From: Amphiscolops sp. MND2022
Taxonomy: Eukaryota
DNA: 64,000 nucleotides
NCBI GenBank assembly: GCA_964187785.1
Contig: OZ076409.1
Coordinates: 58,406,001 to 58,470,000 of the forward strand
Reading direction: 5' to 3'
Of this stretch, positions 31,903 to 56,623 are shown piece after piece (the first letter of the stretch is position 1; each line of letters begins with the position of its first letter). The position numbers and the translations under genes are program-made. The notes beneath the pieces were generated by a model. The model searched no databases. It had not been told where the DNA came from and saw only the letters and a program-made list of their open reading frames with translations.

Positions 31903-33412
31903 TGTCACAGGCTGCCGCCTGTGACGGCTACTATTATCAAATCTTGTTACAAGGAGACAATTCAAACCCCCCGGTAGTTCTTCCAATTTAGACTTTACTG
32001 ACGTTCGGTCTAAATAGCGACAATAAAACTTCACACTAATTACCTGAAACACATTGTTTCATTACGCAATTTTGTGTCTGTTTTACATAGATGCTACTGT
32101 TATTTTGTGTTTTGCTATATTGGCTGTTTGTAAGATGCAGTAAATTAATGAGTGACGTAAGCAATTAAAAAGCAACCATATCTCAATAGGAAACGTGTTC
32201 AAGTGAATTATTATTCCAATTTAATGTACTCGCTGTCTTAGCTGTCAATCAAAATGCTGTGATTATTTTACTGTACCCGCGTGGACTGACAGTCCGTCGC
32301 GGTAGAATTAGTACACCTCCCGCCACTCGTGCTATATTTGAATGTATTATGTAGCCATGAGGACCAATGGTCTGCTATGGTTAAAATTCAGCTTATGCAT
32401 GTAACTTCATATTTGGATACCATGAAACGTTTTAGTTTAGTTTCCATGTTTAAAACACAACTGTAAAACAAAGTTGTTTCACCTTGATAGGCTAACCGCT
32501 TGAATTTTCCTTTGATGTAATAATATTAGGATGTCTTTATGACGCAATCTCGAAAAGGAGATATTTTTAGTTATATTTTGTCTAAAATTAGAAACTTGAC
32601 ACACAAAATAGGGTTGTCACTCTCCGCTAGCTATGAATAGCGGGGACTGGCGTCCTAAGGGACACAACTGATGCTAAGTCGCTACTGAATAGCCGCTACT
32701 GATCTGAATGAACATTCCATTGTATTTATGTCCACATTTGAAAATTTATTATCCTTGTCTCTGAAATTTCATTCGTTTACTCAGGACAATTATACAAGTC
32801 TTTGTTACAGTAGAGATTCCTTTCAAATGCCTTCGACTAGAAAGCAGAAAGCAAAACAGAGGCGCTCTAGGCAATTGGACATAATGTCTGACGTGGAAAA
32901 TGTTGATATAATGTTAGGGAGTTTTTCAAGAGACGATGATAGAAACAATCAAAGTGAAGATGACTTTAAATTGGACTCAGGGTCAAGCAGGCCGCAACAA
33001 AACTACAATCTAGTTGGAGAAGATTTAAGATCTCTCCTAAACACTAATAGCAGAGAAAATAGTGAAATGACCATTGAGACGACCAGAATGATTAGTGACG
33101 AGATTCCAAACCAGAGGTCCAGGAAGCCTAATGAAATTAGGCCTAGCTTGAATTCCCAAATGCAAGATGCACGTACTATGGCAATGACTGAAAAGCTCCT
33201 TCTTTCCATTCAGAACACACTAAATGTGCAGGGGAAAGGTAATTTCACCGTGGAGGACCGAAGGTTCAGTGGTCTATGAAGGAGTCCCGGAGCTGTAAAC
33301 CCCGCAGAAAGGTGGGAAAATTAGCCCAGATTAAGTTCCAATCGAGAAAATCTAATAAAGATGTCTAGGCAGAGTTCAGTAGACTCAAATTCAGGCAAAC
33401 AAGGTCGCGACA
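31903..33412 (+). mobile_element. Solo LTR (1510 bp) related to the 53989 element, TSD GCTTC
   Basis: TGTCAC...CGACA termini and a perfect GCTTC at 31898-31902 and 33413-33417. Start and end align with 53989 and 55484. Confidence 0.9.
32827..33279 (+). pseudogene. LTR-encoded gag N-terminal ORF, truncated by a stop
   Basis: MPSTRKQKAKQRRSRQLDIMSDVENVDIMLG is homologous to MPSTRKQKAKEKRSRQSDVMSDIENIDVMLG at 54839. Confidence 0.85.
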
Positions 33413-34147: not shown

Positions 34148-36162
34148 TACAAACTTTACCATTTTTTTATATGTAGTAGATTATGAGCTCTTTATTGGCC
34201 TCAAAAGTATGCACAGGTATCTCTTACCACAGATCATTTTCTAATCCAAAGCGTTTTTAATCTCTCCAACATGTTTAGAATCGTTTTTGTTCAACATTTC
34301 TCTCAAAGATATAAGTGAAAAACTTCGTTCAACGATCCATTTAATCATCTAAGTGACAGATAACTGCTCTCTAATTACTCACACCACTTCACCTCAATCT
34401 CTATAGCTTCACGTCTTAAAACAATTTTGGCTTGGAAAAAGCGCTTTACAATTTTAGAGTGTCTTCTTTCAAGTTTTTCGACACTACGAGAATTTGACAC
34501 CAAAAAAATGTTTTCCTCGTTCAGGTTTTTCTGATGTTTTAGGTTAGAACAAAGCTATTTTCTTTCTCAGTGTTTTAACCTTGAGCGCTGCGGTGACTTG
34601 GGCTGTTCCCGGCTTGTTTATAAAAGATATATATTTATGTATCTTTTATATAAAAGGAATTCAGTGTTTTTATTAGATTTTTACTTTCTTTTCAAAGTTT
34701 TTTGAGATATCAACAGGACCCACGCTGATGAACAGGATAATTTGAACCCTGGCATTTTTTGGCAACGTTTTTTAGGACTCGAACGTTGGCGATATACAAC
34801 GGAATATGCACAAAAATTTGTAATTTTTTAAAAGTGTGACTTTTTAAAATTCTCTTAGTCGACACTCATATGATTATTGCCACTTTTCGGCCTTCCCAAA
34901 TTAGTTAGCTTTAACTTTATTCCCGAATAGTATCAGACCCTGTGAGATCGAAAACGGGCAAACACTTCATCCGAAGTGCCTTATTGGAACTTTATAAGCA
35001 TAAGTGTATGATCTAGTTTTCAGAGCTGTATAGATTTCTGGAGGTTTAACTAATTGGATACTTTTCAGTCAAACAGTTGAGACTGGGGTGTGCGGTTTTC
35101 CCCAAAGACATAATATTAGCAGAAAACACGAAAAATATTGCAGTGCCACTTTGCTTCTTGTATCATTCTTGAAAAGAGTCAATTAGTTTGATAGCTTTAT
35201 TGTTTACTCTAATTTGTTCCCTCGAAAGGCCTTGTGATCATGAAAACTTTGTTCAGGTCGTTCATGACTCAAAAACAACGTTGATAACCCATTTAAGTGA
35301 CAACATAATGCAGAGAATGTATCTTTCCGTGAACGACTTTGACGGAGGGAGCTTGTACACATTATTGACACGCTGCTTCGCGGTCTTTTTTTGTTCGCTA
35401 TTCAGAAATTTTCCATCGACAACATTTTTGAGCCTTTTTGGGAAACCATATTGTGTTATTAACGGATTCTTCATTTGAAAAAAAATCAATGTTGGTATGT
35501 TGGTTGGTAATTATAATATATTATCCACAATAGGAAACAATAAATAGTTTTTGAAACTTCGTTAGTTTTGGTCACACTCTGAAAACCTAGGTTGACCAAA
35601 ATTAGTAGAAGTCATTGCGGAAACTATTATTGCGGAACTAGACTTGTACTATGTTTACATCATTCAAACAAACATGGAAATAATGTTCATCAAAATAATC
35701 AAAACAAATAAACAAATAAATCGTACATGATTTCTACAATTATTATGCTCTCAAGTGGACCAGTAGAAAAAAGGAATGAAAACATGACAAGATGTTCCGC
35801 TTTAGGAAGCGAGTCTAAACACCTGGGAATACAAGAAAAGCAGTGGAGTGAAAGCGGTATTTAAATTCGCCGCCTCTTAGAAGTAAACGCAAAGCTTTTG
35901 CGTTGAAAAATGACAATAAGCTCATCTTTGAAGTGACGACGTTTCCGCTTCCACCAGTCGAAATTCATCAAAGCTAGCAAAGATGAAATTTCTGTTTGTG
36001 ATGTTCGCTGACAAATCCTCTTTTCCATTCCGTCTTTTCGTAGCATCTTGTTTTGAATTTATGATGGCTCTGATCAAAGCCACGAAAAACGAAAGACTGT
36101 TAAAAATTTATACGCTCATATTTATCTTGAAAGAGCTCCTAACTATTGTATAATTGATCTGC

Positions 36163-36875
36163 TGTAACGTCAAGCTAACAGCTACATTCCAGAACCGGGA
36201 CAATGCCCAGGTTGCCTTAACAAGAGACCAGTGTCTTACAACAACCTAAACATTAGTTTTTAGTCCCAAATGGTCTCTGTAGGGACTTTTCCAAGACGCC
36301 GAGGAGACTCCTAATATTAGAGCTCCGTGGCGACGTGCCGGCACACTCAAAGTCCGGACACGTCCCACAAGCACGTAAAAACGGTCCTAAAGGCTTCCTG
36401 CGATCCTACATACCTCCGAGGTCTGAAAACAGGGGTTTAGTCAGAGCACATCTCAATTAAGTGAATAACGTCTAAAATCAACACCTTCCAGTTTTACCAT
36501 TAACAAACACCTGAAAATCTGCCAAAATACTATAAAACAGCACTGGGGAGGCATTCTGAACAGTTCCCAGCGAGTTTTGAGCTTTGGGTTCAACTCACGC
36601 AAAAATCGCACCTTCTTCTTCATCTCTTTTCCGGCTCATTCTTGCGATTTTCCGGTTTTGATGGCACAACACTGGGGTATTGGCTAGTTTCTGCTTCTGA
36701 ATATCTTCTTTCGCTGCTTTTCGGTCTTCTCTGTGGTCTGGGGGGGGTCTTTTTTGCGTTGTGTGTGCTTTCTTTTCGATTTCAACGACCTGCTAGGTCG
36801 GCCATTTTGATTCGCACACTTTTTGGGTATTCTTCGAATTTTTGAAATTTTTGACCTTGACTGGTGGACGTTACA
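36163..36875 (-). repeat. 3' LTR
   Basis: Matches 50498-51210 except ctcctAat/ctcctCat; PPT GGGGAGGA is adjacent at 36876-36883. Confidence 0.98.
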
Positions 36876-38127
36876 TCCTCCCCGGGCCGTAGTTTGTCGT
36901 CCTCGGCAAACGAGAGAGAATGATACATACCCAGCGGGTCTTTTAGCAACATTATTTCATTTTTTTTACTGCTCCAAATTTCTGCATCATTTTTACAGCA
37001 CTTTTTTTGACGTTAGCACTTTTTCATCTTTTGAATTTAGCACTTTTTCAACATTCTAGAGGATAAAAACATTTTCTCTAAAAGAAAACTCTTTCCACTC
37101 GTTTCAATCTAGTTAAAACTTCTTTGAAGGGTGGTAATGTACGCGGCATTCCAAGAATTGCAAGAAAGCATAGTTGCAGGAATTTCAATTGCAAATTTTT
37201 TGTTTTTGGGCAGGGAGGCACCAAGTTGGGACCCACCTACCAGGTAGGGTATTACAGAATGCACAATAGCACTTGAATCGGGTGTAATCAAAGCGTTGCA
37301 ATGCCAAATGAACAGCTCCAATATAGAAACACTACAAATAACACGTCAAAGAAGATCACAACGTGAGAGTCCATTCAGTCCATCGTGTTCTGATGTTTGT
37401 TTGGGATCCCTTTCCACTGCGCTCATTTTGAGTTCCAGGAATTCATTCATCGTCCACTCAAGTGTATGAAGTGCAGAACAAGCATTTCTGAAGCCAACAA
37501 CTATTTGGCTGGAACGGATACGTCTATTTAGACGACAAATAAGTGATTGCCGCTGGAACCTGTTCCGTATGGGTTGCTTCGCACAAATCACAGGTTGAGT
37601 CAAACGTTTGGAGACTGGTGGTTCGAACACCACTAAATTTGACTTGATATTCGTCTCCTGTCATGCACGGCTTCACCATTCCATAGTTGATAACAGCAGT
37701 TAGTTGACGTTGATCTCCGGACAATAATATTGACTTCTTGCCGCTGTCAGTTGGATCCACATTGCTCGGACCGCTCTCTCAACCAAGTGAAAGATTAATG
37801 CATTGTGTACAAACAAGAAACGATAGCATACTGCGTTGGTGTGTAGCACCTGGGGTATAATCTCAGGAAATTGTGGGGATGTAACTGGGATTTGTGATCT
37901 GATACCGCGTAGGTTCAGCGAAATAGGACACAACTGTAAAACAAGCAGCAGTTGTAGATTAAGACCTTTTTTGAATTGGAGCGAAATACAATATGATCAG
38001 ACACAGACGAGACAGATAGTAAAACAATCCGTATTAAGAACCAGTTCGCCAATTAGTTAAAACGACACATAAGTTTAAAAGAAGGCAAGTGGCCTTTCGA
38101 ATGACTACTTCTGAGTGCTACAGGCTT

Positions 38128-41100
38128 TCAATCAAGCTTGTGCTTTACGTGGCTAGGGTGTGCTTTGACTGATGCAATCGACACATACACCCTGTCATGG
38201 AGAACTATGTCAACGTCTGAGTCAATGAAGTGATCTCTCAACATTGAATACCAAGCTGGTAGTATGTTGATTGACCTTTCAGGATCATAGATAGGAAGGT
38301 GAACTCGGGTAATTTGAGCTTGGGCGAGCTTCTGCACCAGATCTGTTAGGCATAGATGTAGCACATCATGTAACATGGGATGTTTGTTGGAGGCTCTTGT
38401 GAATAGTAGAAACATGTCGGTATTCCATGGCGCATCTGGTGATTTGGCGAGGTGTATGGCTTTTCCTACGGCTGGTCGTAGTTTGAAAATCTCTTCTTGG
38501 CCATATTCCCTGATGACGTAACGCGCCATTGCTGAGTATGACAGAAGATCAGCCGGACAGCATATCACCACGGTACCACGTGCTTGCAGTATATCGGTTT
38601 CATCGTAAGATATCCATGGTAGATAGTTCGGCTTGACTTTCGGGTGCGTTGTCAACAGTTTTCCCGTGACGGTGCTTTGATTATCTTGACTTGGTTTGAG
38701 ATGATCTAGAATGGCTTTACGGTCTTGCCACACTGTTCTGCGCAAAGGCCTGTCTCCCAAATTCGTGCAAGACCAATCATGAACTACGGAGAGTGCTTCT
38801 AGCACGGTCACTGGGTTCTCAAACGTATACGTATGTTTGTCCAGCAGGCGTATTTTGGCTTGGCGACAGGAAGTGATAGCTAGTAGCTGTAACCAATGTT
38901 GACTAAGGAATTTCCCGCGATAGATATCTGCTAGATGAAAACAAAGTGTGTCCTCGAACTCTACAAGTGTACGCAAGTTCTCTAAACAAATCAATAGAGT
39001 TCCTGGATTCACTGGTGATGTTTCGTCCAAGGAGGTGACCAATAGCCACCACCCAGCCGTTGGATGATACACATCTCCAGGAGGGGAGGTCACACCATAT
39101 TGTTGCCACAGCTTCTGCGCGGTGATACAGCGTACCATTGCTACTTTCGTGTCTTCTGGCTCTATTTTTCCAAACACCATCGATGGTGGGAGTGGGGGAA
39201 TGATAGCAGCTAACGTAAATTCCAATCCACTCTTGTCGTGGCACGACCACTCCTTGAACCGATAGGTGGGACAGTCTGAGGGTGATGTTCCTTGCATGGC
39301 TCTTAGTGTGGTTTCCAGGGGTGGGACCACATCTGGTCCAATGCTCGAGTACGTCTTTTCTATTGAAATTACAACATGATGTACTTGTGGAACATCCTGG
39401 TCCTTTGCGTGTATGGACCTGATTGTATGTTGTATATGGTCTTCGAATATTTCGGTGTCGGCTAAGTCAAGAGCAGGAGCGTCCACTCCCCGGGCCAATC
39501 GCTTGTCCGGTGTTCTCACTTCAACTAGGTTGACGCAACTACAGTTGCGGGAACCACAGGTTCCACACCTGTATCGTGGTGCTCTGTTACGTCGTAGCTG
39601 ATAAGGTGGGGCTTGTGAAGGGGTTGGTTGCTCCGCTTCTCGTTGCTCTGGCGATATGCTTTCCGCTATGTTGGGTAATGTCATTGCACGTTCCAAAGTT
39701 TGAGACTGAGCTCTGGCTCTTACTCGGCCTCTCGCTCGCGTGTATGGTCTGTGCGCTCTTGTAAGTGTTCTGCTTGATGGAGTGGTACTTCCTCTTCTAC
39801 GACCTGGAGGTCTGCCTCTTGGTCTGCCTCTTCTAGTTGCAGTTCTCCCTGATGAGGGTAACGTTTCCATGCTTTGACCGGGTTCTTGAATTTCTCTGTC
39901 AGTTCCTTCTTGGGGTTCGGCTTCCTCGGCAAGTTCTAGTCTTACCGAGCTACCAGCTCGAGAACTGAACAGTGGAAAATTACTCAATGTATCGGTTAAA
40001 ACCGGGTTCGAAAGCAATGGTGCGGACGTTCCTGACGGCGAAGGTACCAAGCTTGGTGCTGGTTCAGGTAAGACTTCCTCTTGATCGGAATACAGCGGTT
40101 CTAGGTCATCAATATCAGGATGAACCATTGGTTGCTGTGGTTCTTCAATGGGTTGATCCATTGGTTCTCTGTCAGATTCCGACTCAGACGGATATCCAAA
40201 GTGACTGAATCGTTTACGTGGGATTCCTCGTTCCAGAGCGGACTGAGTACGTGTCTGAATCGTGCGCGGTGGGACAGGCGCGGTTGGTTCCATTTCGAAC
40301 GATGCCTCCGGCAGTTGTTCTGGAAGAAATGAGTCTCGTGATATATCTGACGTTATCTCCTCATTGCTTTCTTCCACGTATGGATCTGCGACGATGGCTA
40401 CATTCTGGTCTAACCCGAAGGGTTGATGTGCTGCCCAATCCCATGGCGCTGGCACATGCTTCTTCAGACGCTCAAAATGAACCTTTTGACCTGTATCCAA
40501 AACGTACAATCTTCCATCTTGTAACACATCCGTGACCTTGTGAGGTCCACGCCAGGCACGAAGAAGTTTGCGGGTACCACCCTTGGGAATTATATGGCAG
40601 AAGACCCAAACGGCATCACCCACGGCATGAGCTTTTGCCTTCAAGTGTCTGTCGAACTTCTGTTTTTGACGTACCTGCGCTTGATGAGTATTTCGACGAA
40701 CGAGCTCGTGGATTTCTTGTTGTCTAGCAAGCAGGTGCTCTACGAATTCTTCTTTGGACTCAAACTCTCGCGCTGCGAATTCTGGGTATATAAACGAGAG
40801 CGGAATGGATTTTTCTGCGCCATGTTGAAGCATGTATGGAGAAAATCCGGTTGTCGCATGTCTGGTCGAATTGTAGGCACCCAAGACTCCGTCTACATGC
40901 TCATCCCAGTCAAGCATCCTGCGTGACGTATAGACTCGGAGCAAGGTGAGCAATGTTCGGTTTTGGCGTTCCACTAAACCGTTGCCTCTAGGATGAGCTG
41001 GGGTAGACGTTACCTTGGTTACTTGCGAAGCTTTCATCAATTCTTGAGCAATTTCGGCAGTGAAGTTGGTGGCATTATCTGACTGCATCCTGGCAGGAGT

Positions 41101-44100
41101 GCCATGTCTCGCAAACCATTTGTTCAGGATAATCTTTGCAGTCGTCTGTGCGTCATATTCATCGTGTGCACATGGGATTGCCTCTGCAAACTTGGTAAAA
41201 TGGTCGATGATGACTAGCAATCCATTATTTCCTGACGTTGTCTTGCACAATTTCAAATGGTCAAATTGCACCAGGTCATTAAAATTGCTGCTGTTGATAC
41301 TCTGTAGGGGGTAACAGGGATTCCCAGCGGGATGCTTCGTCTGTTGGCATGTTAAGCAATGCTTGATATGATTGACGACATCACGCTTGATGCCTGGCCA
41401 AGTGTGGCGCTCTTGTATCCTCGCCAATACTTTGCCAACGCCTTGGTGTCCTGATTCGTTATGCGCTCTGTACAAGATTTCATGCTGGTAGAGCTGGGGC
41501 ATGACAATCATACACGGTCGTACGTGCATCGCGCGTTGCTGCGGAATGTAATTGACACATAAAATGTCATTTTGGTTCAAGAACAGTAGGTCTTTTTTCT
41601 GATGAAAGTACCGTTTGGCAAAGTCTTGCACATCCTCGGGGAACAAAGCGTCATCCAATGGCTCGTTCTTCATGAGCTTCTTCAGCGCTAGAAGATGAAC
41701 ATCCCTGTTTTGAGCTAGATGTAGATCCTTCAATCCACGCATTGTCGACTGATGCTCGTGAAGCTCAGTCCCAACTAGCCTAAGGACATCAGCTTGTTCT
41801 TGACACTGCATTGGCAATCTACGCAACGCTGGGTCGCGTTTGGTGGTGTCGAGACGTGCCGCTGGCACTTTGGTTGTTACACTAAGGGTACAATTTGGTC
41901 TGTCGTTTTCGGTTGATGTCGGAGTGTTTTCCCATTGCACTTGTGGATACCACGGTATGGAGCTCAAAGACTGATCTGAGGTTAGATCCTCCTTTGGTGG
42001 CTTCTTTAAAATATACAGCACAGGGAGTTGTGCCCGAGCTTCGGGCGGAAGCTCCGGATGGTTTCGGATGAATTTTCCGTGTTTGTCAATATATGGCACA
42101 GTGGGGAGTTCTTCGTAGTCTTTCTGGGACATGAAGCTGAATCCCTTGCTCACTTCTGGTAGAGCTTCCACAATCTTCTCCCGATGCACGTAGTCATTGG
42201 TCCTTTTGCTAAGACCGTCTGCATTTCTGTGTTGCGTGCGTGGTCTGTGGATCGTCTTGAAGTGATATTGGTCGAGGCGCGCAATCCAGCGTCCAATCAT
42301 GGCCTGATCCATTGAATATGTCTTCAGCCACGAGAGAGCCTGGTTGTCCACGCGCAGCGTGAATTCCCGACCTGCAAGGTAGGAATGAAACTTCTCGATA
42401 AAATAGAATACTGCATACATTTCCAGCTTCGGGGCGCCATAATTCATTTGTGTTCGAGTCAGTGACTTGCTGCCATAAACGATGGGACGAAGAATGGTTT
42501 TCCCATTGTATTGTTGTTCTTGGTGCAGTATGCCGGCTATAGCAAGTGCACTGGCATCTGTGTCCAAAACAAAACGTCCTTCTTCGTTTGGCGCTGCCAA
42601 AGCTGTGGCATCGGCTAATGCCTGTTTCACTGAGTCAAACGCTTCTTGATGTTTTTCTTTCCAGTAGAAGTGTTGGTTCTTCCTTAACAACTCCTGCATA
42701 GGTTGCACCTTAGCAGCGTGAAAAGGAATGAAGTCCCGGTAGTAGTTCGCAAATCCGAGGAAGCTTTGAAGTTCTTCTTTATTTCTCGGGGGCATCCATT
42801 CTTGGATTTTGCTAACAGCTGCCGGGTCTGGTTTTATGCCTTCGGCTGAGACTACCCGTCCGAGGTATTTGGTTTCAGTGCGCATGAAATCACACTTCTC
42901 GGCTCGCATCTTGAAACCTGCCTCTCTGAGGCACTCGAACACTTCTCTGATCCTCTCCAAATGATCTTCAATTGTTTCGGTGGCAATTACTATGTCGTCA
43001 ATGTATGCCATGACAACACTTCCATGGCGTTGTTGAATCTTCTGAAGAGCTCTGGTGATCGATCGCTGAAATGTGGCCGATGCATTGCATAGCCCAAAGG
43101 GCATGCGCCGCCATTCGAACAGGCCAAGTTCACACGCAAACGCGGTTTTTCTGCGATCACGTTTCTTCAGTGGAATCTGCCAAAAGGCCCACGCTAAGTC
43201 GATGCTCGTGAAGATTTTTGCATTCGCGATCCTTGAAAGACTTTCATCAATCCTGGGCAGTGGGAACGCGTCTTTCACTGTTACATCGTTCAGCGGGCGG
43301 AAGTCACAGCAAAAGCGAAGCTCGCCTGATTTCTTTTTCACCATGACAATCCCACTAGCCCACGGCGAGTAAGAGGGTTGAATCAAACCTAGAGCTAACA
43401 AATTCTGCACTTCTTGGTTTGCTTTGGCTGCTTTGTCGGGAGACATGCGCCTTGCCCCTTCTCTGTGTGGTATAGCCTCCGGCTCTAGCTCTATGCGATG
43501 TTTCGCAATTTTGCATCGTCCTATGTCGGATTTATTTTTCATGAACAGGTCATCGTATTCACTCAAAACGCTCGCTAATTTGTCTCTCGCCCCTTCCCCC
43601 CAAGAAGAAAGGACGGAAGAGAGGTCGGGGCCTGGGATCGGCTTCAGCAATAGTGGATCTGTCCTTTTGCGTTTTTCATTTTCCGATAGGCCCATCTCTG
43701 ACGGCTCAGTTGAAGACAAAAAGTTCTGTGCAAAGGAACTAAACTCTGAACTTGTGTCCAAATCTAAGTCTCTGTGCACTTGATTCACAAATTCGGCTGA
43801 AAGCTTCGAAGCTTCACGACTGTCTTGAATGGGAACGGAGTTGAACACAAAATTGGTGAGCACCGCTTTCCCAACTACGGTTTGTTCCTTGATTCTTACC
43901 CCTTCTTTAGCAGTTTGGTTTCTTAGGGCTAAAAAAACTACACCGTCTTCTCCCACGGAAGTAAGTGTATCTTCTGAATCAAACAATGAGTTGGACCTAA
44001 TGCTACATGGGTGCACCATTACGTTACGAAAATGAAACTCGTTGGGCTGCTGCGTTTTGATCTTCGCGCGCACAACTTTTCGTTCGAAAGGCCCTAAAGT

Positions 44101-47100
44101 AACCTCCTCGGCAGAAACAACGAATGATGGCTCTTGGTCACTGACCTCGTGAACTGCTTTGAAGATCCTAGGCGTTTCCGGGTCACGGATGGTTACTTTC
44201 ATGGCAGCCAGGTCCACCAACACGTTGTATGTGCGCAAGAAGTTCCGACCCAGGAGAAAATCCTCTGAACCAATGTGATCGGCTATGACTACAAAGTTGG
44301 TCTTCAGAGTGTGTTCGCCAAGCTGAAAGCTTACGTCTTCGGCTATTCCAACGGTGGTGATGGTCTTGCCATTGGCAGCGAAGAGTTCAAGATCGTACGG
44401 TGACAGGTTCAGTTCATGCTGGGGTGCAATTTTCTTGTACGCGCTCAATGAGAGGATGGAGACTCCCGAACCGGTGTCTATCATGCCGAAGAGTGGTATC
44501 GGCTTTTGCAAAGTAGTTCCGAATGCGACGACTAGCGAGGCTCGCTCATCAATCTGGGCCTCTCCTTGTGCATCCTGCACTCCGATGTTATAACAGCGCA
44601 GTTCTTGCCTGCCCAAGTACAGTCCCTGCGGGAAGTGTCCTTCCAGGACAACAATCGCGTCGAATTTCATGTCGACACCATCAACCGTGATTGCAATGGG
44701 GACTGGCGCGATTGTTTTGACCTTGTGTAGTTGGGCTAGCTTGGTCTCGTCATCTCTAGTAAAATGCGGTAAGGGTCTCGAAGCTATCGTGAGACTGGTA
44801 TTGCGGCAAAGTTCCTCTTTTAGTTGTGCCAACGTGAGGTTTGGACGTGCTTTTTGTTCTGCTGATAATAGCAAGTGGATAGAAATTAAAGTCTCAGAAC
44901 AATCAGGTGCTGGGGCTTCAAGCGTCGTCAAGATTTGTTTTTCACCGCAAGTCACAACCACAGGACGTGAGGGGCCTCCTTCTTCTGAAGTTGAGATCAC
45001 CCGTATTTGATCATCAGTATCAATAATGTCCGCGGAATTCGCGAAAGGGGCGTACCACGCCGCTTTCACTTGTTCTTCTGTTGCTGCATTCCCAGGCACC
45101 ATGCATTCGGATGCAGTGTTGCCCGTGCAATCAAAAGTGACGCGTAGTGTGGGCGGTGCTTGTGCTGGTAGTGCCGCGGGCACAACGTCGTTATTCATGC
45201 CCTGAGAGTTAGAAGGACAAGACCATTCACCAGCTGGGTTTGTTCGACATGAAGTAACTAGTTGAGGCACTGGTTTGTGTGCGCGATCTTTCAAAGTGCA
45301 ATCGGCAACAAAATGTGACGGGTCGCCACAATTGACACACTCTCTAGATGGCTTCGGTGGTTGCTGTCGAACAGCCACTGGCTGTGGAGGTAGCTGCCCA
45401 TTAGGCGCTTGAGCAGCCGCTGCCGGTATCGGGTTTTGGTGGCTAGCAAGTAACGGCTCTTGGTGTTGCTGAGGCGCTGGATAGTTCTCAGAGTGGATGG
45501 GGCCGCGCATATGCAAGTATTGTTGTACCGTGAACCGTAGTGCTTCCACTGTTGGAGGTGTATCCACGTACTGTTCTTGTGCGTACATGAGTGCGAGATT
45601 TCGCTTCAACTCAAAGCTGCGTACCCCTTCAATGAACCTCTGCATGATTTCGTAACGCCTTACAGTAACGTCCTCGTTAGGAAAACCTTGGCTGCGCAAA
45701 CCTTCAAGAGCGTCAAGATATTGCATATAGTCTTCGTTGTCGGACTGATTGCGTGTACGGAACTGCTGTTGTATTTGGAACTTGCTAGATCCGGTTCCAA
45801 ATCGACGCGCTAGTAGCGCAAAGACTTTTTCATCCGTGTCGCGCTCAGCCTCGGATTTGTTCATGATGTAGTCTTGTGCCTCATTCTCTAGGAATTCAAC
45901 GATGGTCCATGCTCTGTCCAGTGGAGTATCCTTTGCGTGTGCTTTCTCCAAATAACGTTTCATGAGCATTAGCCAACCATCTATTATCCCGTCGCGCGTA
46001 CCGCGGTATTTTGTTGGTATATTTTTGGCTTCTTTTGCTGCTAGCAATGGTTCCAAACTTTTGGACATCGCGCTTGTTATTGCTTCGGCTAACGCTTGTC
46101 CATGTATGGTGTTCGGTGTATTGCCTTTTGCAGCCTCTTCTACTGTTTCTGGATTCAAATTTCTTTGATCGCACTTCGTCCCACTATGGCACTGAACTAC
46201 TTCTCTATTGGTGGGTTGCTGAATTGAAGATTCATTAGTGGATGGTACGTTCGCAGGGTTTAGTGCCACCGGCACAGGAGAAGGACGACTTGGTACCGTC
46301 GCCACTACAGCTTTTACCCTTAGGGTCAACTCTTGAACTGTAGTCATGAGGTCCACCATGCGCTTGTCGACATCTATGTCTCTGCGATGCATAGTTTCGG
46401 AAATGAGCGTCAGTCGTTCATCGGCTTGGTGATCTCTTTGCGCCATTATCGCAGTCATTTCCGATATGAGCTTTTCAGTTAAACCCTTGACTGATGCCAT
46501 TGAGGTTTCCATTTTGCCCTGATTGATGTGCCCTTCCATCTTCATTTCAATTACTCCTCTTCTCAGTTCCTCCATTTCTTTCATTAAGACTTCAGCTGGC
46601 TGAGCATGGTCACCATTCTCTTGGACTAAATTGGCTTGGACTTGTTTCAACTGTGCTAAGCTCCGTCCCAAGTCTTCCCTGGTGGCTTCAGTTTCCTTGA
46701 TGCAGCCAGTGATGGTCGAGCTTGGGGACGCTATGCTATCTGAGCCTGAATATTGGGAAATTGCCGTCCCTCCTAGTTGGAAGGTACTAGGGCCTAGCAG
46801 AGGTGATGTGGTTAAGGTATAGTTCTGGAAGTTCACCTCTTTTATTGTCTCCCGCTTTCCCAGCTGGTTTCCTAGAGGAGTACTTGCGGTGTCAGCAACA
46901 GCGTTCCTACTAGCAGCAAACACAGGAACTCCGGAACCCAGCGGGTCCACATCCAGACTCACTTGTGGTGTAATCTCTCCAAAGGCCGTGCCTGCATTCA
47001 TGTTCTCTACCCATTTGCTGATGTCCGAGCTAGTAGCTTGTTCTCCATTCGAATTTGGCCAATCTCCCCAATCAATCGCAGAGTTATTCATGGGAGGCCA

Positions 47101-47475
47101 GACGTTACTACAGTTCATGGCAGTGCCATTTACAAAGTTAGCGCTATCGGAAGATGCCCGAGAGGAGTTTAGTTGGCTGAAGTATGCCATTTGCGAGTTT
47201 TGATCAGCGATGGACACATTATCCGACATGACGTCGTATAAAAACATGTTTGCAATCATGTCATCCGCTGCTATCTCAGCACGTGCACTAAGCCTAGACA
47301 ACTTCTCTACATCGCTTGCAAATGGATTCGTAGCGTGGAAGCCACTAGACTGCCTGTTCGACTCATTCAAAGACTTCAGATACTCAATCTCGCCTGATTT
47401 CACGCTCGATGGACTGCTCTGACTACTGTTTCCTCTGGTGACCCAGCTTTTGAACAGGGCTTTGGCTTTTTTCAT
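38128..47475 (-). CDS. gag-pol: Gag-Pol polyprotein, 3115 aa: N-terminal extension, capsid, CCHC, degenerate + active protease, RT, RNase H, integrase, AT-hook and two macrodomain-like repeats
   Basis: CVNCGDPSHFVADC; IDTGSG; YIDD; DTDAS; HNESGH..CLTC; FDH/SDN/VER; GPHKV; RRGRPRGRP; C-terminal TARG1-like pattern. Confidence 0.97.
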   Translation of the reverse strand: MKKAKALFKSWVTRGNSSQSSPSSVKSGEIEYLKSLNESNRQSSGFHATNPFASDVEKLSRLSARAEIAADDMIANMFLYDVMSDNVSIADQNSQMAYFSQLNSSRASSDSANFVNGTAMNCSNVWPPMNNSAIDWGDWPNSNGEQATSSDISKWVENMNAGTAFGEITPQVSLDVDPLGSGVPVFAASRNAVADTASTPLGNQLGKRETIKEVNFQNYTLTTSPLLGPSTFQLGGTAISQYSGSDSIASPSSTITGCIKETEATREDLGRSLAQLKQVQANLVQENGDHAQPAEVLMKEMEELRRGVIEMKMEGHINQGKMETSMASVKGLTEKLISEMTAIMAQRDHQADERLTLISETMHRRDIDVDKRMVDLMTTVQELTLRVKAVVATVPSRPSPVPVALNPANVPSTNESSIQQPTNREVVQCHSGTKCDQRNLNPETVEEAAKGNTPNTIHGQALAEAITSAMSKSLEPLLAAKEAKNIPTKYRGTRDGIIDGWLMLMKRYLEKAHAKDTPLDRAWTIVEFLENEAQDYIMNKSEAERDTDEKVFALLARRFGTGSSKFQIQQQFRTRNQSDNEDYMQYLDALEGLRSQGFPNEDVTVRRYEIMQRFIEGVRSFELKRNLALMYAQEQYVDTPPTVEALRFTVQQYLHMRGPIHSENYPAPQQHQEPLLASHQNPIPAAAAQAPNGQLPPQPVAVRQQPPKPSRECVNCGDPSHFVADCTLKDRAHKPVPQLVTSCRTNPAGEWSCPSNSQGMNNDVVPAALPAQAPPTLRVTFDCTGNTASECMVPGNAATEEQVKAAWYAPFANSADIIDTDDQIRVISTSEEGGPSRPVVVTCGEKQILTTLEAPAPDCSETLISIHLLLSAEQKARPNLTLAQLKEELCRNTSLTIASRPLPHFTRDDETKLAQLHKVKTIAPVPIAITVDGVDMKFDAIVVLEGHFPQGLYLGRQELRCYNIGVQDAQGEAQIDERASLVVAFGTTLQKPIPLFGMIDTGSGVSILSLSAYKKIAPQHELNLSPYDLELFAANGKTITTVGIAEDVSFQLGEHTLKTNFVVIADHIGSEDFLLGRNFLRTYNVLVDLAAMKVTIRDPETPRIFKAVHEVSDQEPSFVVSAEEVTLGPFERKVVRAKIKTQQPNEFHFRNVMVHPCSIRSNSLFDSEDTLTSVGEDGVVFLALRNQTAKEGVRIKEQTVVGKAVLTNFVFNSVPIQDSREASKLSAEFVNQVHRDLDLDTSSEFSSFAQNFLSSTEPSEMGLSENEKRKRTDPLLLKPIPGPDLSSVLSSWGEGARDKLASVLSEYDDLFMKNKSDIGRCKIAKHRIELEPEAIPHREGARRMSPDKAAKANQEVQNLLALGLIQPSYSPWASGIVMVKKKSGELRFCCDFRPLNDVTVKDAFPLPRIDESLSRIANAKIFTSIDLAWAFWQIPLKKRDRRKTAFACELGLFEWRRMPFGLCNASATFQRSITRALQKIQQRHGSVVMAYIDDIVIATETIEDHLERIREVFECLREAGFKMRAEKCDFMRTETKYLGRVVSAEGIKPDPAAVSKIQEWMPPRNKEELQSFLGFANYYRDFIPFHAAKVQPMQELLRKNQHFYWKEKHQEAFDSVKQALADATALAAPNEEGRFVLDTDASALAIAGILHQEQQYNGKTILRPIVYGSKSLTRTQMNYGAPKLEMYAVFYFIEKFHSYLAGREFTLRVDNQALSWLKTYSMDQAMIGRWIARLDQYHFKTIHRPRTQHRNADGLSKRTNDYVHREKIVEALPEVSKGFSFMSQKDYEELPTVPYIDKHGKFIRNHPELPPEARAQLPVLYILKKPPKEDLTSDQSLSSIPWYPQVQWENTPTSTENDRPNCTLSVTTKVPAARLDTTKRDPALRRLPMQCQEQADVLRLVGTELHEHQSTMRGLKDLHLAQNRDVHLLALKKLMKNEPLDDALFPEDVQDFAKRYFHQKKDLLFLNQNDILCVNYIPQQRAMHVRPCMIVMPQLYQHEILYRAHNESGHQGVGKVLARIQERHTWPGIKRDVVNHIKHCLTCQQTKHPAGNPCYPLQSINSSNFNDLVQFDHLKLCKTTSGNNGLLVIIDHFTKFAEAIPCAHDEYDAQTTAKIILNKWFARHGTPARMQSDNATNFTAEIAQELMKASQVTKVTSTPAHPRGNGLVERQNRTLLTLLRVYTSRRMLDWDEHVDGVLGAYNSTRHATTGFSPYMLQHGAEKSIPLSFIYPEFAAREFESKEEFVEHLLARQQEIHELVRRNTHQAQVRQKQKFDRHLKAKAHAVGDAVWVFCHIIPKGGTRKLLRAWRGPHKVTDVLQDGRLYVLDTGQKVHFERLKKHVPAPWDWAAHQPFGLDQNVAIVADPYVEESNEEITSDISRDSFLPEQLPEASFEMEPTAPVPPRTIQTRTQSALERGIPRKRFSHFGYPSESESDREPMDQPIEEPQQPMVHPDIDDLEPLYSDQEEVLPEPAPSLVPSPSGTSAPLLSNPVLTDTLSNFPLFSSRAGSSVRLELAEEAEPQEGTDREIQEPGQSMETLPSSGRTATRRGRPRGRPPGRRRGSTTPSSRTLTRAHRPYTRARGRVRARAQSQTLERAMTLPNIAESISPEQREAEQPTPSQAPPYQLRRNRAPRYRCGTCGSRNCSCVNLVEVRTPDKRLARGVDAPALDLADTEIFEDHIQHTIRSIHAKDQDVPQVHHVVISIEKTYSSIGPDVVPPLETTLRAMQGTSPSDCPTYRFKEWSCHDKSGLEFTLAAIIPPLPPSMVFGKIEPEDTKVAMVRCITAQKLWQQYGVTSPPGDVYHPTAGWWLLVTSLDETSPVNPGTLLICLENLRTLVEFEDTLCFHLADIYRGKFLSQHWLQLLAITSCRQAKIRLLDKHTYTFENPVTVLEALSVVHDWSCTNLGDRPLRRTVWQDRKAILDHLKPSQDNQSTVTGKLLTTHPKVKPNYLPWISYDETDILQARGTVVICCPADLLSYSAMARYVIREYGQEEIFKLRPAVGKAIHLAKSPDAPWNTDMFLLFTRASNKHPMLHDVLHLCLTDLVQKLAQAQITRVHLPIYDPERSINILPAWYSMLRDHFIDSDVDIVLHDRVYVSIASVKAHPSHVKHKLD

Positions 47476-50463
47476 TACTCACTCTATCCTTCTTTGTGCA
47501 AAGTCAAACGCAAGACAAACAAAAATAGGAAGTTTTCGATGTACTCCCTAACTATTATTTAAACTAAACTATGGGACCACTACGTTCTGGAGTTTGCAGC
47601 TCGTGATTGCTTTCTAGATTCTAAATTGAAAATAGCTGGCCTTCACAAACCTCAGACTCCAGATTACATGCACTAATTAGAACAGAAAGGTTTGCTTCCA
47701 CACTAACTGGAGATAGTTATCCTACGAAAAGTTAAAGTTAAGCCTTTTAAGTTTTTTTTTTTGAGGTACTTTGACAAGCTACTTGCACTAAACTACGCTT
47801 AATCCAGCCACAGGCTACGCGGTTGGAGCGAACAAAAAGGTTTTGGCACGCTAGCAAGGTTTTACGGAGGTTTATTCAAGAAATCACCGTACTTTGCTTC
47901 ACAAACGTGCTTTATGTTACTCGCACTGCCCTTTAATAAGAGAGCACGAGAGGGATTACTACAAAAAGGGGAATTGGGGAATAGACCTTGGGGTGAGCAA
48001 ATGTCAGGACACCTTCGAACGAGAGGGTTTTCCCAATCTGATCGTAGCACGATCAATAGAAATACAGATCTTCACTATTTCAAATGCTACTACACTCAAT
48101 TTTCTGTCTTGAGACGCACCGCGTCCGAAGTCTAAGTCTCCTAGAAAACTCCTAGATGCGTTCTAGCTTTCTCACGTCACTTCTCCAGTCGAGGCCAACG
48201 TGGCTATGTCTATTAGCTCGTACTTAGGTGACTTCGGTGGCCGTTAGTAGAGAAAACACGTTTTTTGTGTTTTTCACTCCTATGTCTCGTCAACAGTTTT
48301 TCACAAACCCAGGATCTCAGGGTTGAGCTAGCTCGAATCTGATTACCTCGGCAGGACGTGCTATGGGTGCCTGGTGTAGAATTAGGGTCGTTTGAGCCCT
48401 TTCTTGCAACTACACTTACGAAAAATATGTGAATTTTCGCAAAATTTCTCAAAATCAGCAATTTTTTCACCAAAGTGCACGCCTGGGGATGATGGAAATC
48501 ACTTCTAGAGCTAGTAGCGACCTGAAAATTTAACACGGTATACTACAGTGGCTAAATCGTGGGAAACTAACCGCCGATTGCGCCAAAATTGTTTCCTCGT
48601 GACTCAGGGTCGCTCACCAATGTTACTTGAAAAATCGACTATGTTGCGAAATTCACACAAGTCTGTCAAACTCGCCTTCCAGGCTTCCTAGCTACTTGAA
48701 ATTTTGTATGCGAGCGTGAATTATGCCCACGTAACAGAAAAACAATATAGCGGGGTTCCTAGGTCGATATTTAGCAATCCGAGTTGACAAAACTATGATG
48801 TACCCTATATGTCACTTTCAAGGGTCAAAATTCACAAAATTGTCAATTTCTCCAAGTTGGACAGTAGCAAGCTACTAAAAATGCACAAATCGTCGGGATC
48901 TATTGCCGTGTGTACAAAAATGCAAGAATTTTAGTGCTGGGGTACTCCGAAGGTATTGCACTATGCTCAACTAAAATGCGATTTTTTTGACATTTCGGTA
49001 CAGATTTTGGGCAAAACTACAGCTAAGATTTCTCGATCACTAGTAACAGTAGCGCTACGAAAATTACACCACTAACGTAACTTTTTGCGGTCTACACGAT
49101 GGTGCAATCCGTTTTGGGCTACTCCTGCTAGGAGAGATTTCGACCTTTCATTGAAACACTAATCCAATGTTCCGATAATGTCGCAAAAATAGCACGTTTT
49201 GGGCTATTTCTCAACAACCACTGGTTGGAATCACTCGCGGTTTTCGGCGTTAGTAATCTAGTACTCTCTACTAACAGAAAATAGGCGAGCGAAACCTGGC
49301 AGGTTCCAAATAAGGTCTCTCAAAATTGATTTTAGGTTACACCTTGGACACTCTGGGAACACCTATGAAAAACACGTATTTTCCTTAGGAACTTTTTATT
49401 CTTCGGTTCCCAGAGGTTCGGGATGGTTTTAACAGTACAGTAGGAAGGTGTAACTACTTTATTTAGGGGACTGGGGTTCTTTCAATTATTACTTTTGATG
49501 TTATGCCTCTCAGGTCTATGGGGTCCTGTACTCAGGTCTATGTATATTGAAAGAAATAAGCTGTTAAAGTTTCAATTTTAATAGGGGAGCCTTAAAAAAC
49601 AACTTGGTAGTAGTGACTCGTACTACCAAGCTAGGGAACAAAGTTTTTGGGCAGATCTGAAAGCTTTGGGTCAAGTGCCCAAGACTTTGCCCTCGTCAAA
49701 TTTTGTCTTTTTGGCTAAATTTGACTTTTTCTCTATAAAAATCACACAATTTCTCAATTTTACACCAAGTTGGCCCAACAATTTTTTCTGTTCCTGACCT
49801 AGCAGGTCTGATGGAACGTTTTTCCCGTATTCCCAGTGGCCGTATCCTTTTTCACAAATTTTCACCCTTCAAAATCCGTAAAATCGCTATTTGAGCTATA
49901 TAGGGTGTTGTTTTCAAGGTTTTCGCGCTCAAATTTTTAATCAACTGGTTCAAACACCTTCAGGGTATTTTTCCCAGTTAATTTTAGTGGGGATAGGCCT
50001 GGGAATATGCTTTTTGGGCCGATTATTAGCAAGAATTGGCAATACAACCCGATTGTCGTGGGTATTCGGCAACTAGAGGGGTGCTGGAGGTGTGACGTCT
50101 GAGGTGCTCACACACTGCCGTCAGCTATCTGGGGCCTTCAGCATTCGTCCTCTCGGTCCCCATACATTGCCAATTTACTGAAATAGAGCTGCAAAACCCT
50201 TTAAAACCAGTTCCGGATAGGCCGGATTCACTTTTTCAACAGATATTATCGAAATACAGGGGGTACACTGTTTGAAATCGCCGATTTTCGGTTCCAGACC
50301 TCGGAAATACGCAGGAAACGCAGGAAAACACTACTACAAGGCCCACAGGGCTAGAATGAGGCAATAAAAACAATCTAGGACTCACCAGCAAGTTTTCCTA
50401 GATCCGGACCTAGCAGGGCCGGAAAGCAGGAAAAACTCCTATTATGGCGAAAAGATGGAAAAA

Positions 50464-50481
50464 GTCCCTTGTGGGGCGCCA
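50464..50481 (-). promoter_or_regulatory. Primer-binding site, tRNA-Lys-like, 16 nt from the LTR
   Basis: TGGCGCCCCACAAGGGAC matches the tRNA-Lys3 PBS TGGCGCCCGAACAGGGAC at 15/18. Confidence 0.55.
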
Positions 50482-50497
50482 TAAAAACTATCCTAGA

Positions 50498-51210
50498 TGT
50501 AACGTCAAGCTAACAGCTACATTCCAGAACCGGGACAATGCCCAGGTTGCCTTAACAAGAGACCAGTGTCTTACAACAACCTAAACATTAGTTTTTAGTC
50601 CCAAATGGTCTCTGTAGGGACTTTTCCAAGACGCCGAGGAGACTCCTCATATTAGAGCTCCGTGGCGACGTGCCGGCACACTCAAAGTCCGGACACGTCC
50701 CACAAGCACGTAAAAACGGTCCTAAAGGCTTCCTGCGATCCTACATACCTCCGAGGTCTGAAAACAGGGGTTTAGTCAGAGCACATCTCAATTAAGTGAA
50801 TAACGTCTAAAATCAACACCTTCCAGTTTTACCATTAACAAACACCTGAAAATCTGCCAAAATACTATAAAACAGCACTGGGGAGGCATTCTGAACAGTT
50901 CCCAGCGAGTTTTGAGCTTTGGGTTCAACTCACGCAAAAATCGCACCTTCTTCTTCATCTCTTTTCCGGCTCATTCTTGCGATTTTCCGGTTTTGATGGC
51001 ACAACACTGGGGTATTGGCTAGTTTCTGCTTCTGAATATCTTCTTTCGCTGCTTTTCGGTCTTCTCTGTGGTCTGGGGGGGGTCTTTTTTGCGTTGTGTG
51101 TGCTTTCTTTTCGATTTCAACGACCTGCTAGGTCGGCCATTTTGATTCGCACACTTTTTGGGTATTCTTCGAATTTTTGAAATTTTTGACCTTGACTGGT
51201 GGACGTTACA
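50498..51210 (-). repeat. 5' LTR
   Basis: 713 bp, matches 36163-36875. Confidence 0.98.
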
Positions 51211-52085
51211 TGCATTTTTCTTATATGGCTTTTTTATTCCTTTCCAAAAATGCTTAGTTGATTTCAGATAACATCTTAGCCCAAATTTCTCTCCAAGGCC
51301 AAGTTCAAAAGGCTAGATGGCCAATTAAAAATTCATTTTTGCTTGATCCTGAAAGTGTTTGCTCAGCATTTTGTTAATACTTCAAATTGAATCACCTAAA
51401 ACATTCAGCTTTTGGTTGATGAATTTTAAGTTTAGATTTATTCTGCTCCCAAGAACTCGAAGTGAGGGATCAAATTGAACACGAAAGGTCATCAATCTTA
51501 TTGAGATCAAAGGTACTTTTCCTTAGACGTATGAAGGTCCGGAAAGGATTTTTGCATAAATGTTAAAACAACCCATTTTTGGTTTCCCTGGCAATAAAAG
51601 TCTTCATGTATACTTTTTTGTGTTTACTCCGAGTCGATTAAAGTTTATGTTCAAAACCTCCAATATATATTTTTTGTTTTCGTTTTTCTGAAGTCGCAAA
51701 AATGGTAGCCACTATGAGAAACACTACTAGATAAATTTGCAGTGAAACATGGAATCCATATGAGGGCCATACTTCAAAATGATTTCCACGAAGAGACCAT
51801 GCAATGGTATGAATTCAAATCTATGATTTCAAATTTATGAATTCTTGATTTAAATCACAAAATGATTTTCATTTATGGCAACTAGTTTCCATTATATAAA
51901 ATCCGTGTCAGATCAACCTGAGTTGTGAGAACAAATTGAGTAACAAAGCAAATCACCCATTTCTGTTACAGACATCAAACCCATTATAACTTTCGAAACC
52001 AAATGGGAACAATTAAAATTACCACATGTCGGCGCCCAGCTCAGTTTCAAAAAACCACGTTTCTTAAATATCTATTAGACACTAT

Positions 52086-55484: not shown

Positions 55485-55498
55485 TGGTGACAGGAGCC
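55485..55498 (+). promoter_or_regulatory. Primer-binding site TGGTGACAGGAG (tRNA-Leu-like), inside the gag reading frame
   Basis: TGG directly after the LTR terminal CA; the tRNA identity is an inference. Confidence 0.7.
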
Positions 55499-56623
55499 AA
55501 CCTTACCCCACATTTGGTCCCAGAATTCCTGACCGGACGGCCCATGCAATCCCGAAACACCATTCCCTTTCCAAATCCTAGCACTGACGATACGCTGGAA
55601 ACAACCCTCCCAGCTCAGCAAAATCCAATTCCAATTAACCTTCAGGAGACGCCCCGCGAACCTCCAGTCGACCCCATCAACCGACTTGCAGATGTCATTA
55701 TGGGGATGAACACGAAACACCCATCACAAACTCTGATGGTACGCCCAGTCAGTACGACCACACTGACGTTTGACGGGAAATCTGAAAAGTTCGAACTGTT
55801 CGAAGATCTTTTTCACACGATGATAAAGATGCAACCGGACATGACGGAAACAATGAAAATCAACCATTTTCACTCTCTGTTACGCAAAAACGCGCTACAG
55901 ACCTTTCGCAACATCAATTCAACCAACAGACAAACCCTAGAGGACATACAAGCAGTCTTCCGTAGGAAATATGTCAAACCCGAATCTCAGGCAACCGCCA
56001 AACACAAATGGCAGAAATTGGTATTTGATCCAAATACTATGAAATTGCCTGATTTCCTCGAAGAACTCAACCAAGGTGCTGAAAAAGCCTTTGGGGGAAC
56101 ATGCCCAAGCAATGATTGACAGTTTGCTTTATGCCAAACTACCACCCAAACTGAAACGTTCAGTCAACATGGCGCGACTTGAAAATGCTACGTATGAAGA
56201 GATTGTCACACATCTCGAACGAGAATTAGAACTGAATGGACTTGAGGAAGGTGACTACATTCACGTCCCCACAATGTCCACTGCCCCCACAGCAACACGA
56301 CCGGGAACTGGTCTTCTTTCATCCGGCATCGACCCGAATATCACTTGTAACTATTGCAAAAAGCCGGGACATGTCAAAGACGACTGCCGAAAACTCAAGA
56401 GAAAGGAGGAACAAAAGCGCAATGGCGGGCAGGATACGAAGAAAGAATATCCCAAATGTCCAACTTGTGACAAAACGAATCACCCGGCGGAACGGTGTTG
56501 GAAAGGCGCTGGAGCCCACCTCAAGCCCAAAAACCTCAAATTGGATAATTCCAAAACCGAGGAAACTCCCATGAGTCAAGATGACTCCAATAACAAACCC
56601 ACTACTTCTATCCTCAAAAATTC

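Follow-up and report, generated by a model that had tools for sequence, protein, structure and literature searches.

Two predicted TARG1-like macrodomain folds without the canonical active site at the end of the Pol tail of a Ty3/Gypsy retrotransposon in Amphiscolops sp. MND2022

Coronavirus nsp3 contains tandem macro folds in its SARS-unique domain (Mac2/Mac3), which act as partner binders within the viral polyprotein and are not known to bind ADP-ribose. Chromoviruses carry a chromodomain at the C-terminus of the Gypsy integrase, behind the GPY/F motif (PMC5053271). Fish epsilon-like endogenous retroviruses carry macro domain open reading frames (ORFs) (Basta et al., 2009, in the review PMC4977317). 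In foamy virus, Gag residues Y537, L539, and R540 dock in the acidic patch of H2A-H2B (PMC9040877; PMC6042332). In this study, a 64,000-nucleotide stretch of the Amphiscolops sp. MND2022 genome (contig OZ076409.1, positions 58,406,001 to 58,470,000; hereafter the window) was analyzed computationally. The window contains a minus-strand Ty3/Gypsy long terminal repeat (LTR) retrotransposon of 15,048 bp (36163-51210), whose Pol ends in two tandem domains, A and B, with predicted macrodomain folds closest to human TARG1 (OARD1, C6orf130).

The LTRs of the element differ by one mismatch (99.86% identity, self-BLAST), and the TG...CA LTR ends, primer site, and polypurine tract of a Ty3/Gypsy element are all present. 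A single ORF (P0001) encodes gag, protease (PR), reverse transcriptase (RT), RNase H, and integrase (IN), with Pfam matches in the Gypsy order PR-RT-RNaseH-IN. The closest solved relatives in the Protein Data Bank (PDB) were Ty3 RT for the RT (E 4e-74) and Ty3 Gag-Pol for the IN (E 2e-29). Judged by domain order and RT, the element is Ty3/Gypsy; judged by its integrase module, it is not a chromovirus. An initial annotation of the window had described an intact 3115-aa ORF with a long tail behind a GPY/F motif. The ORF is open throughout, and the tail does lie at that position, extending about 780 aa beyond the C-terminal HFERLK of IN (aa 2332), but the motif reads GPH. As in chromoviruses, an accessory folded module occupies this place, which makes a tethering role plausible. 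Unlike chromoviruses, the element has no chromodomain (Pfam, Foldseek); its tail holds AT-hooks, a Y-x-L-R motif, a cysteine knuckle, and the macro pair, and its target duplication is 3 bp.

The macro folds were recovered from predicted structures. Pfam found neither a macro nor a chromo match in the P0001 tail, and a single-sequence phmmer search of the PDB with the tail gave nine matches, all unrelated (E 0.11-2). A profile of 91 homologues retrieved five PDB sequences at E<=10, all TARG1/C6orf130 and all weak (E 0.28-0.39). In an AlphaFold model of the last 400 aa, two alpha/beta domains with identical element order were seen. For domain B (aa ~2953-3098), the top eight Foldseek matches were all TARG1 (best E 3.7e-8, TM 0.83 by target), and VIA gave a Z of 16.4 to TARG1 (root-mean-square deviation 4.2 Å over 143) and of 15.2 to DarG. 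Domain A (aa ~2761-2880) was folded separately with its upstream segment (predicted local distance difference test, pLDDT, 88; predicted TM score, pTM, 0.83). Its top eight Foldseek matches were also all TARG1 (E 8e-5 to 8e-4); in VIA, its Z to TARG1 (10.4, root-mean-square deviation 3.3 Å over 118 residues) was tied with those to BT1257-type 2afc (10.4) and DarG (9.9). TARG1 thus ranked first for both domains in the predicted-structure searches, in agreement with the initial claim of two tandem TARG1/OARD1-like macrodomains at the C-terminus, and the structure search that had been proposed as a check found a macro fold for A and for B. In these models, A and B are minimal macro folds closest to the TARG1/DarG/Poa1p class. 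Human TARG1 (4J5R/4J5S/2LGR) has the same fold and topology and is the best structural match of each domain; DarG (5M3I, 5M3E), BT1257 (2AFC), and Poa1p (6LFQ) are of the same fold class. The structure of Mac2 with Paip1 (6YXJ) was also among the matches of the tail macros (Z 6.5-6.9), but nsp3 Mac2/Mac3 belong to another macro class, with TARG1 scoring far higher, and the resemblance is one of analogy, not descent. The ESM Atlas gave leads only (0.78-0.80 for the whole tail; 0.90-0.92 for domain B to phage clusters, one of them 14% Macro), and in a viral fold library the tail matched macro-containing proteins and nothing more specific.

The two domains are unequal. Domain B ends in a conserved C-terminal HDRVYVSI. 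The first glycine loop is missing from domain A, a reduced fold, to which a beta-rich extension, ordered in the model, is added. The more degenerate copy had been placed at 38838-39270; the copy is there, but macro A proper stops at ~39195, and the conserved extension runs on to ~39387. The hhalign score of A against B was 25.8 (maximum of 30 block-shuffles, 10.5), and that of A against intact TARG1 was 16.9 (maximum of 30 block-shuffles, 13.3). Because A is nearer to B than to intact TARG1 and a loop-2 H...D-x-x-R is common to A and B, the domain would have been remodeled first and duplicated afterwards.

The TARG1 active site is lost in both domains. TARG1 numbering was taken from the 4J5R alignment, anchored on G43, I44, and K84 of the published papers; the loop register rests on two alignments, with no solved structure. 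The macro pair shares 12-18% identity with TARG1 and differs from it in the tandem arrangement, the fusion to Pol, the extra beta extension on A, and the loss of the Lys84/Asp125 dyad and both glycine loops, whereas B keeps the first-strand Asp and C-x3-D. In B, that Asp (D2961), which corresponds to the adenine-binding position, is kept in 63/64 sequences and R3067 in 64/66. Gly43 is replaced by Ala (62/66), the catalytic Lys84 by Arg3027 (Arg in 65/69, Lys in one), Gly121 by Asp3064 (63/69), Gly123 by Glu3066 (61/69), and Asp125 by Ser or Pro (58/64). In A, loop 1 is deleted, loop 2 reads H-x-x-D-x-x-R-G-K with one Gly kept, and the Lys84 position is Ser or Ala in 77/82. TARG1 K84A is inactive (PMC8501950), and TARG1 G123E neither binds ADP-ribose nor catalyzes, though it still binds RNA outside the pocket (PMC5928194). 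Judged by these residues, neither A nor B has the dyad and glycine loops of a TARG1-type hydrolase, and the tail is of the TARG1 fold class without being a TARG1-type enzyme. Because Glu is fixed at the Gly123 position, and provided that the loop register is right, an eraser, an ADP-ribose reader, and a sponge are all disfavored, and activity of any of these kinds in the manner of TARG1 is unlikely. The initial annotation had noted the altered catalytic Lys (ITK to FTR) and second Gly-rich loop, and both hold across the homologues. The first loop is altered as well, but not from GAG to SYS, as TARG1 G41-A42-G43 aligns to Y-S-A. Its proposals were an integration-targeting or chromatin reader and a decoy against PARP-based defence; any form of these that needs ADP-ribose binding (an ADP-ribose reader or an ADP-ribose-soaking decoy) is weakened by the Glu at the Gly123 position and the absence of loop 1 in A. 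Since the substituted pocket residues are conserved, selection may act on a plug held by salt bridges or else on a site for a new ligand.

Both domains are under purifying selection. Codon comparison was performed on 17 natural ORFs in 15 pairs, seven of which were between subfamilies and not independent. The ratio of nonsynonymous to synonymous divergence (dN/dS) between subfamilies was 0.07-0.09 for A and 0.07-0.13 for B (seven pairs), except for the pair Q-L062, with 0.24 for A on only seven changes. For RT and IN it was 0.01-0.04, and for the linker (aa 2346-2620) it was 0.14-0.30 in six pairs and 0.56, on eight changes, in the seventh. Within-subfamily pairs (0.05-0.32) had too few changes to be informative. 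Synonymous divergence (dS) in the compared ORFs reached 1.5. Between distant families, identity was 47% in A, 42-45% in B, and 35% in the linker; both macro folds are still found in families whose RT identity is only 78%, and families whose tails are only ~42% identical have full-length ORFs of 3,052 and 3,192 aa.

A search of the 1.07-Gb assembly with the tail as query gave 4515 first-look candidates, of which 104 were scored. Among these top scorers, a set biased to intact copies, 101 had no stop in the tail, and 42 lay in open frames of at least 2,997 aa (hand count from the table). The family is young and very abundant. A frameshifted or neutrally evolving tail in sister copies had been named as the outcome that would undo the initial proposal, and the tail was neither. 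That the element is apparently active agrees with LTRs one base apart, the many intact copies, and the purifying selection. A search of 1.84 billion proteins gave 446 matches, and the best 150 of the 446 were mostly fragments; no NCBI- or UniRef-named full-length relative was found among 62 long and 120 listed near-length matches, all of which were ENA proteins. The homologue P0059, found on short contigs with one JGI member, has a best match of 49% in this genome, and, from P0059, the tail probably exists in another organism. A metagenome scan with P0059 gave one 1-kb contig without context, and a genome search for the homologue P0295 gave nothing at a too-strict cut-off. Near-identical elements among L100-L139 carry at least three LTR types (~692, 712, and 722 nt), which have the last ~275 nt in common and differ upstream. 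Together with jumps in dS along the ORF between copies, these LTR types suggest frequent recombination between subfamilies.

Chromatin-type motifs lie between IN and macro A. Behind the integrase, the acidic linker is followed by a basic segment (net charge +15 to +21). Its RGRP cores, which we take to be AT-hooks, were present in 8/8 full-length ORFs, and an AT-hook-like motif was present in 92/95 fetched proteins long enough upstream of the knuckle, many of them near-identical. A Y-x-L-R motif was found in 131/137 knuckle-bearing proteins (a redundant set), and the segment flanking these motifs is only ~35% identical between families. The Y-x-L-R spacing is that of Y537/L539/R540 in prototype foamy virus Gag, and in both cases the motif stands in a basic low-complexity segment; the foamy virus motif is on Gag, however, and the one here on Pol, and the likeness is a motif match of four residues. 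The C-x2-C-x4-C-x-C knuckle is conserved in all aligned families, has no Pfam match, and is a probable zinc site. As far as sequence can tell, the AT-hooks and YxLR, which the initial annotation lacked, are the strongest chromatin-binding signals, rather than the macro folds. Because a macro-less neighboring Gypsy ends its integrase with YNLR, YxLR probably marks the ancestral integrase end, behind which the knuckle and the macros were added. A net charge of 0 to -9 makes the macro pair neutral or acidic, and this suits the binding of proteins better than unspecific binding of nucleic acids.

Gypsy elements usually make target duplications of 4-6 bp; this is not a defining trait, and the present family departs from it. 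Both ends of 20 full-length sister copies and of the window copy were compared, and 17 copies were resolved unambiguously. The target duplication was 3 bp in 17/17 and 4-6 bp in 0/17. The other four copies were not counted: the 5' LTR end was missing from two, a third had no start, and the fourth offered two candidate starts, the likelier of which also gives 3 bp; one of the four, near the end of a contig, had dissimilar LTRs and lacked a duplication. In other families, where LTR ends were unresolved in 4/8 pairs, the duplication was 3 bp in 4/5 resolved copies. Retroviral integrases likewise make 4-6-bp target duplications (PMC5053271), and a literature search on 3-bp duplications in LTR elements found no relevant paper. 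The primer-binding site (PBS) is also displaced. The spacer between LTR and PBS was 16 nt in 18/20 sister copies (the search required a gap of 14-18 nt) and 15 nt in two distant families; in the window copy it ends in a T-run, and the displacement was seen in three families. A PBS 15-16 nt from the LTR would leave a long donor overhang to trim. Self-priming was considered and rejected, as only chance-level complements of 8-10 nt to the LTR were found.

An intact TARG1 is found at the corresponding position in a second Gypsy clade of the genome (L077-L079, L092, L095; e.g. G000:C12:44821667-44821978). Of six genomic matches to Pfam Macro, three lie in this clade; the host genome also encodes macroH2A. 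The Pol of the clade ends in a single TARG1-type macrodomain (E 1e-27 to human TARG1) with AGIA, TK, and IGCGLD motifs. In its 20 best-scoring relatives, some of which look decayed or truncated, AGIA was found in 19/20, TK in 17/20, and IGCGLD in 10/20; dN/dS of the domain was 0.25 in one pair. The order is IN, low-complexity linker, one TARG1, and then a conserved ~60-aa tail, so that IN, linker, and macro at the Pol end are arranged as in the window element. The clade departs from that element in its single macrodomain, which has the catalytic motifs, in having gag and pol in separate frames, and in its dUTPase and FMDD; one resolved copy of three shows, by eye, a duplication of 5 bp together with an adjacent primer site. 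The two clades share 24-25% identity in RT and IN, and 24% over RT-RNaseH. The best score of the macro B profile, 20.5 bits, was to P0367, whose relatives scored no better than non-transposon TARG1-like proteins. In several clusters of other TARG1-like macrodomains (P0388-P0396; P0400), the fusion partner is a DNA ligase/BRCT protein, and one macrodomain of this set lies in a protein of a crayfish-associated tombus-like virus. An interrupted Gypsy of the dUTPase clade also stands in the window at 54839-61810 (+), 36% to the Pol of L092. It has no macrodomain, and the GGKYNLRP motif at the end of its integrase resembles the foamy chromatin-binding site. In fish endogenous retroviruses, too, a macrodomain was captured by an LTR retroelement, but the sentence in the review places it in additional ORFs and mentions no integrase fusion (PMC4977317).

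Both folds (as predicted models), their in-frame fusion to Pol, the selection on them, the loss of the canonical site, and the conservation of the motifs are directly established. From these we infer that the Pol tail acts as a multivalent chromatin tether with the pseudo-macrodomains as non-catalytic binders, a reading that we prefer tentatively and credit with somewhat less than an even chance. An ancestor of this Gypsy clade would have captured a TARG1-type macrodomain behind a chromatin-binding integrase end, and the captured domain would have lost its glycine loops and catalytic dyad before a tandem duplication. The tail of today would be a tether on a flexible acidic linker, made of AT-hooks, YxLR, the Cys knuckle, and two pseudo-macrodomains. 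The AT-hooks would bind minor-groove DNA, and the arginine of YxLR could anchor to the H2A-H2B acidic patch. The remodeled pocket rim of the macro folds, with H...D-x-x-R in both, would grip a host chromatin protein or nucleic acid, not ADP-ribose. If the tail stays on the integrase, it may aid chromatin engagement of the integration complex, as chromodomains do in chromoviruses, and may thereby affect target choice; the macro folds would bind partners like the non-catalytic Mac2/Mac3 of coronaviruses.

Several observations weigh against a tether. The insertion sites share no common target, with 0 tRNA genes in 16 flanks of eight copies, and a sequence-specific or tRNA-gene target was rejected on this ground. 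The only preference was for A/T three bases outside the duplication (31/34 half-sites, 17 copies), and flank AT (0.64-0.67) rose slightly near the site (0.67 against 0.64) and was close to the 0.636 found 0.5-1.5 kb away. A YNLR-type motif also stands at the end of the macro-less neighboring integrase in the window; YxLR might accordingly be common to Gypsy elements in general, and the macro pair might have another role. The joint A-B model has a pTM of 0.45, without a fixed A-B arrangement, and the protease might cleave the long linker. The strong conservation of D2961, R3027, D3064, and R3067 on the pocket rim of B could also mean new chemistry. B might then bind or cleave another ADP-ribose linkage or a nucleotide by means of Arg3027, Asp3064, Glu3066, Arg3067, and His3059, with A as a scaffold. 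These residues lie along the pocket position, with conservation of 88-98% across 64-69 sequences, and the Asp at the adenine-binding position is kept too. The same conserved charges could merely plug the pocket, however, acidic residues occupy both diphosphate-loop glycines, and Glu at 123 blocks binding and catalysis in TARG1; with the loop register resting on two alignments, we consider such a re-specialized macrodomain improbable. A captured gene that decays neutrally at the end of the ORF would account for the lost catalytic residues and the absent Pfam match. It is refuted by the codon comparison, in which dN/dS is ~0.1 at synonymous divergence of up to 1.5 with the frame kept, and both folds survive at 42-47% identity across families and probably in a different organism; we give it next to no credence.

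The other alternatives keep the tail functional and assign it another partner. The pair may be a counter-defence pseudoenzyme, descended from a true ADP-ribose eraser, that binds and blocks, through protein contact, a PARP of the host, a macrodomain reader, or some further restriction factor. Because a distant Gypsy clade has an intact TARG1 at the same position, ADP-ribose handling seems useful to these elements, and the macros evolve faster than RT and IN; yet dN/dS far below 1 gives no arms-race signal in the pairwise counts, the pocket is unlikely to bind ADP-ribose in the TARG1 manner, and we regard this role as rather unlikely. A little less credible is that the tail, possibly after release by the protease, acts on the nucleic acid or particle of the element itself, in RNA packaging, reverse transcription, trimming of the long U5 overhang, or setting of the 3-bp stagger. 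In the families checked, the tail is accompanied by the 15-16-nt PBS spacer and by 3-bp duplications, the single copy resolved from the intact-TARG1 clade combines a 5-bp duplication with an adjacent primer site, and TARG1 binds RNA outside its pocket (PMC5928194). Against this, co-occurrence confined to one clade counts as one evolutionary event, the macros lack a basic charge, and the stagger is normally set by the integrase core (PMC5053271). The 3-bp stagger and the trimming of a 15-16-nt overhang could also belong to a distinct integration apparatus, caused or enabled by a tail that reads a chromatin or PARP-system signal, which we hold to be improbable as well.

The features of the element are listed in Table 1. 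Two untranslated stretches, 47476-50463 (3.0 kb) and 36891-38127 (1.25 kb), contain no ORF of more than 110 codons and no env-like frame. At the other end of the ORF, aa 1-490 (46010-47475) form a long, fast-evolving extension ahead of the capsid-like region, with 22% identity between distant families and dN/dS of 0.13-0.5; a possible coiled-coil stretch was seen in it by eye. Elsewhere in the window, an interrupted Gypsy at 11651-17257 (-) has LTR segments of 99% identity and a primer site directly after ACA, and a related remnant lies near 4700-8040. A 385-aa ORF at 62029-63186 (-), without a Pfam match, and a 183-aa ORF at 32728-33279 (+), with a similar ORF in L075, are probably derived from mobile elements. 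A 16-bp tandem repeat of ~10 degenerate units occupies 17479-17638. Histone genes elsewhere in the genome form a very large tandem array whose unit is 3.63 kb (G000:C67, C33, C4:21.12-21.17 Mb, others).

Table 1. Coordinates of the parts of the retrotransposon in the window.
Feature	Coordinates	Strand	Basis
5' LTR, TGT...ACA, 713 nt	50498..51210	-	self-BLAST
LTR-to-PBS spacer, 16 nt, atypically long	50482..50497	-	sequence and sister copies
tRNA-type primer-binding site, begins TGG	50464..50481	-	sequence
gag-pol ORF, 3115 aa, P0001	38128..47475	-	ORF calls, Pfam
Aspartic protease, DTG motif	44185..44547	-	Pfam RVP_2/Asp_protease_2, below cut-off, E ~0.002
Reverse transcriptase (YIDD) and RNase H	42265..43341	-	Pfam; Ty3 RT match
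Integrase: H2C2, D-D35-E core, GPH (GPY/F-type) motif	40456..41499	-	Pfam; Ty3 Gag-Pol match
Acidic low-complexity linker, aa 2346-2535	39871..40440	-	net charge -16 to -31 in 5 families
Two overlapping putative AT-hook cores, RGRP-RGRP, aa 2549-2556	39808..39831	-	conserved motif
Y-x-L-R motif, aa 2625-2628	39592..39603	-	conserved motif, foamy Gag spacing
C-x2-C-x4-C-x-C knuckle, aa 2637-2647	39535..39567	-	alignment
Beta-rich N-terminal extension of macro A, aa ~2697-2760	39196..39387	-	model, pLDDT 76-93 by block
Macro A, reduced TARG1-like fold (predicted)	38836..39195	-	AlphaFold model, Foldseek, VIA
Inter-domain strand, two helices, linker, aa 2881-2952	38620..38835	-	models; dN/dS 0.04-0.14 between subfamilies
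Macro B, full TARG1-like fold (predicted)	38182..38619	-	profile, AlphaFold model, Foldseek, VIA
Polypurine tract	36876..36890	-	sequence
3' LTR	36163..36875	-	self-BLAST
Target-site duplication TGC, 3 bp, left copy	36160..36162	+	flank comparison
Target-site duplication TGC, 3 bp, right copy	51211..51213	+	flank comparison

A search of open-access text, without Repbase, subscription journals, or supplements, found no account of tandem TARG1-derived domains on the integrase of a Gypsy element. A tandem TARG1-derived pseudoenzyme would be a new accessory module at the C-terminus of the Gypsy integrase, beside the textbook chromodomain. Structure-based LTR annotators expect duplications of 4-6 bp and may miss thousands of such insertions, and the geometry of the integrase seems unusual, judging by the duplication of 3 bp and the displaced primer site. 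In these natural elements, a substitution used in laboratories to disable TARG1 binding has become fixed. An intact TARG1 and a disabled, duplicated one on two distant Gypsy integrases of one genome form a matched pair, suited to the questions of ADP-ribosylation as a restriction of retrotransposons and of the path from eraser to binder. If the tail does serve a distinct integration apparatus that reads a chromatin or PARP-system signal, then this clade and the intact-TARG1 clade would show ADP-ribosylation to be an undescribed ground on which animals and LTR retrotransposons come into conflict again and again, caught here at both stages, before and after the hydrolase became a binder.

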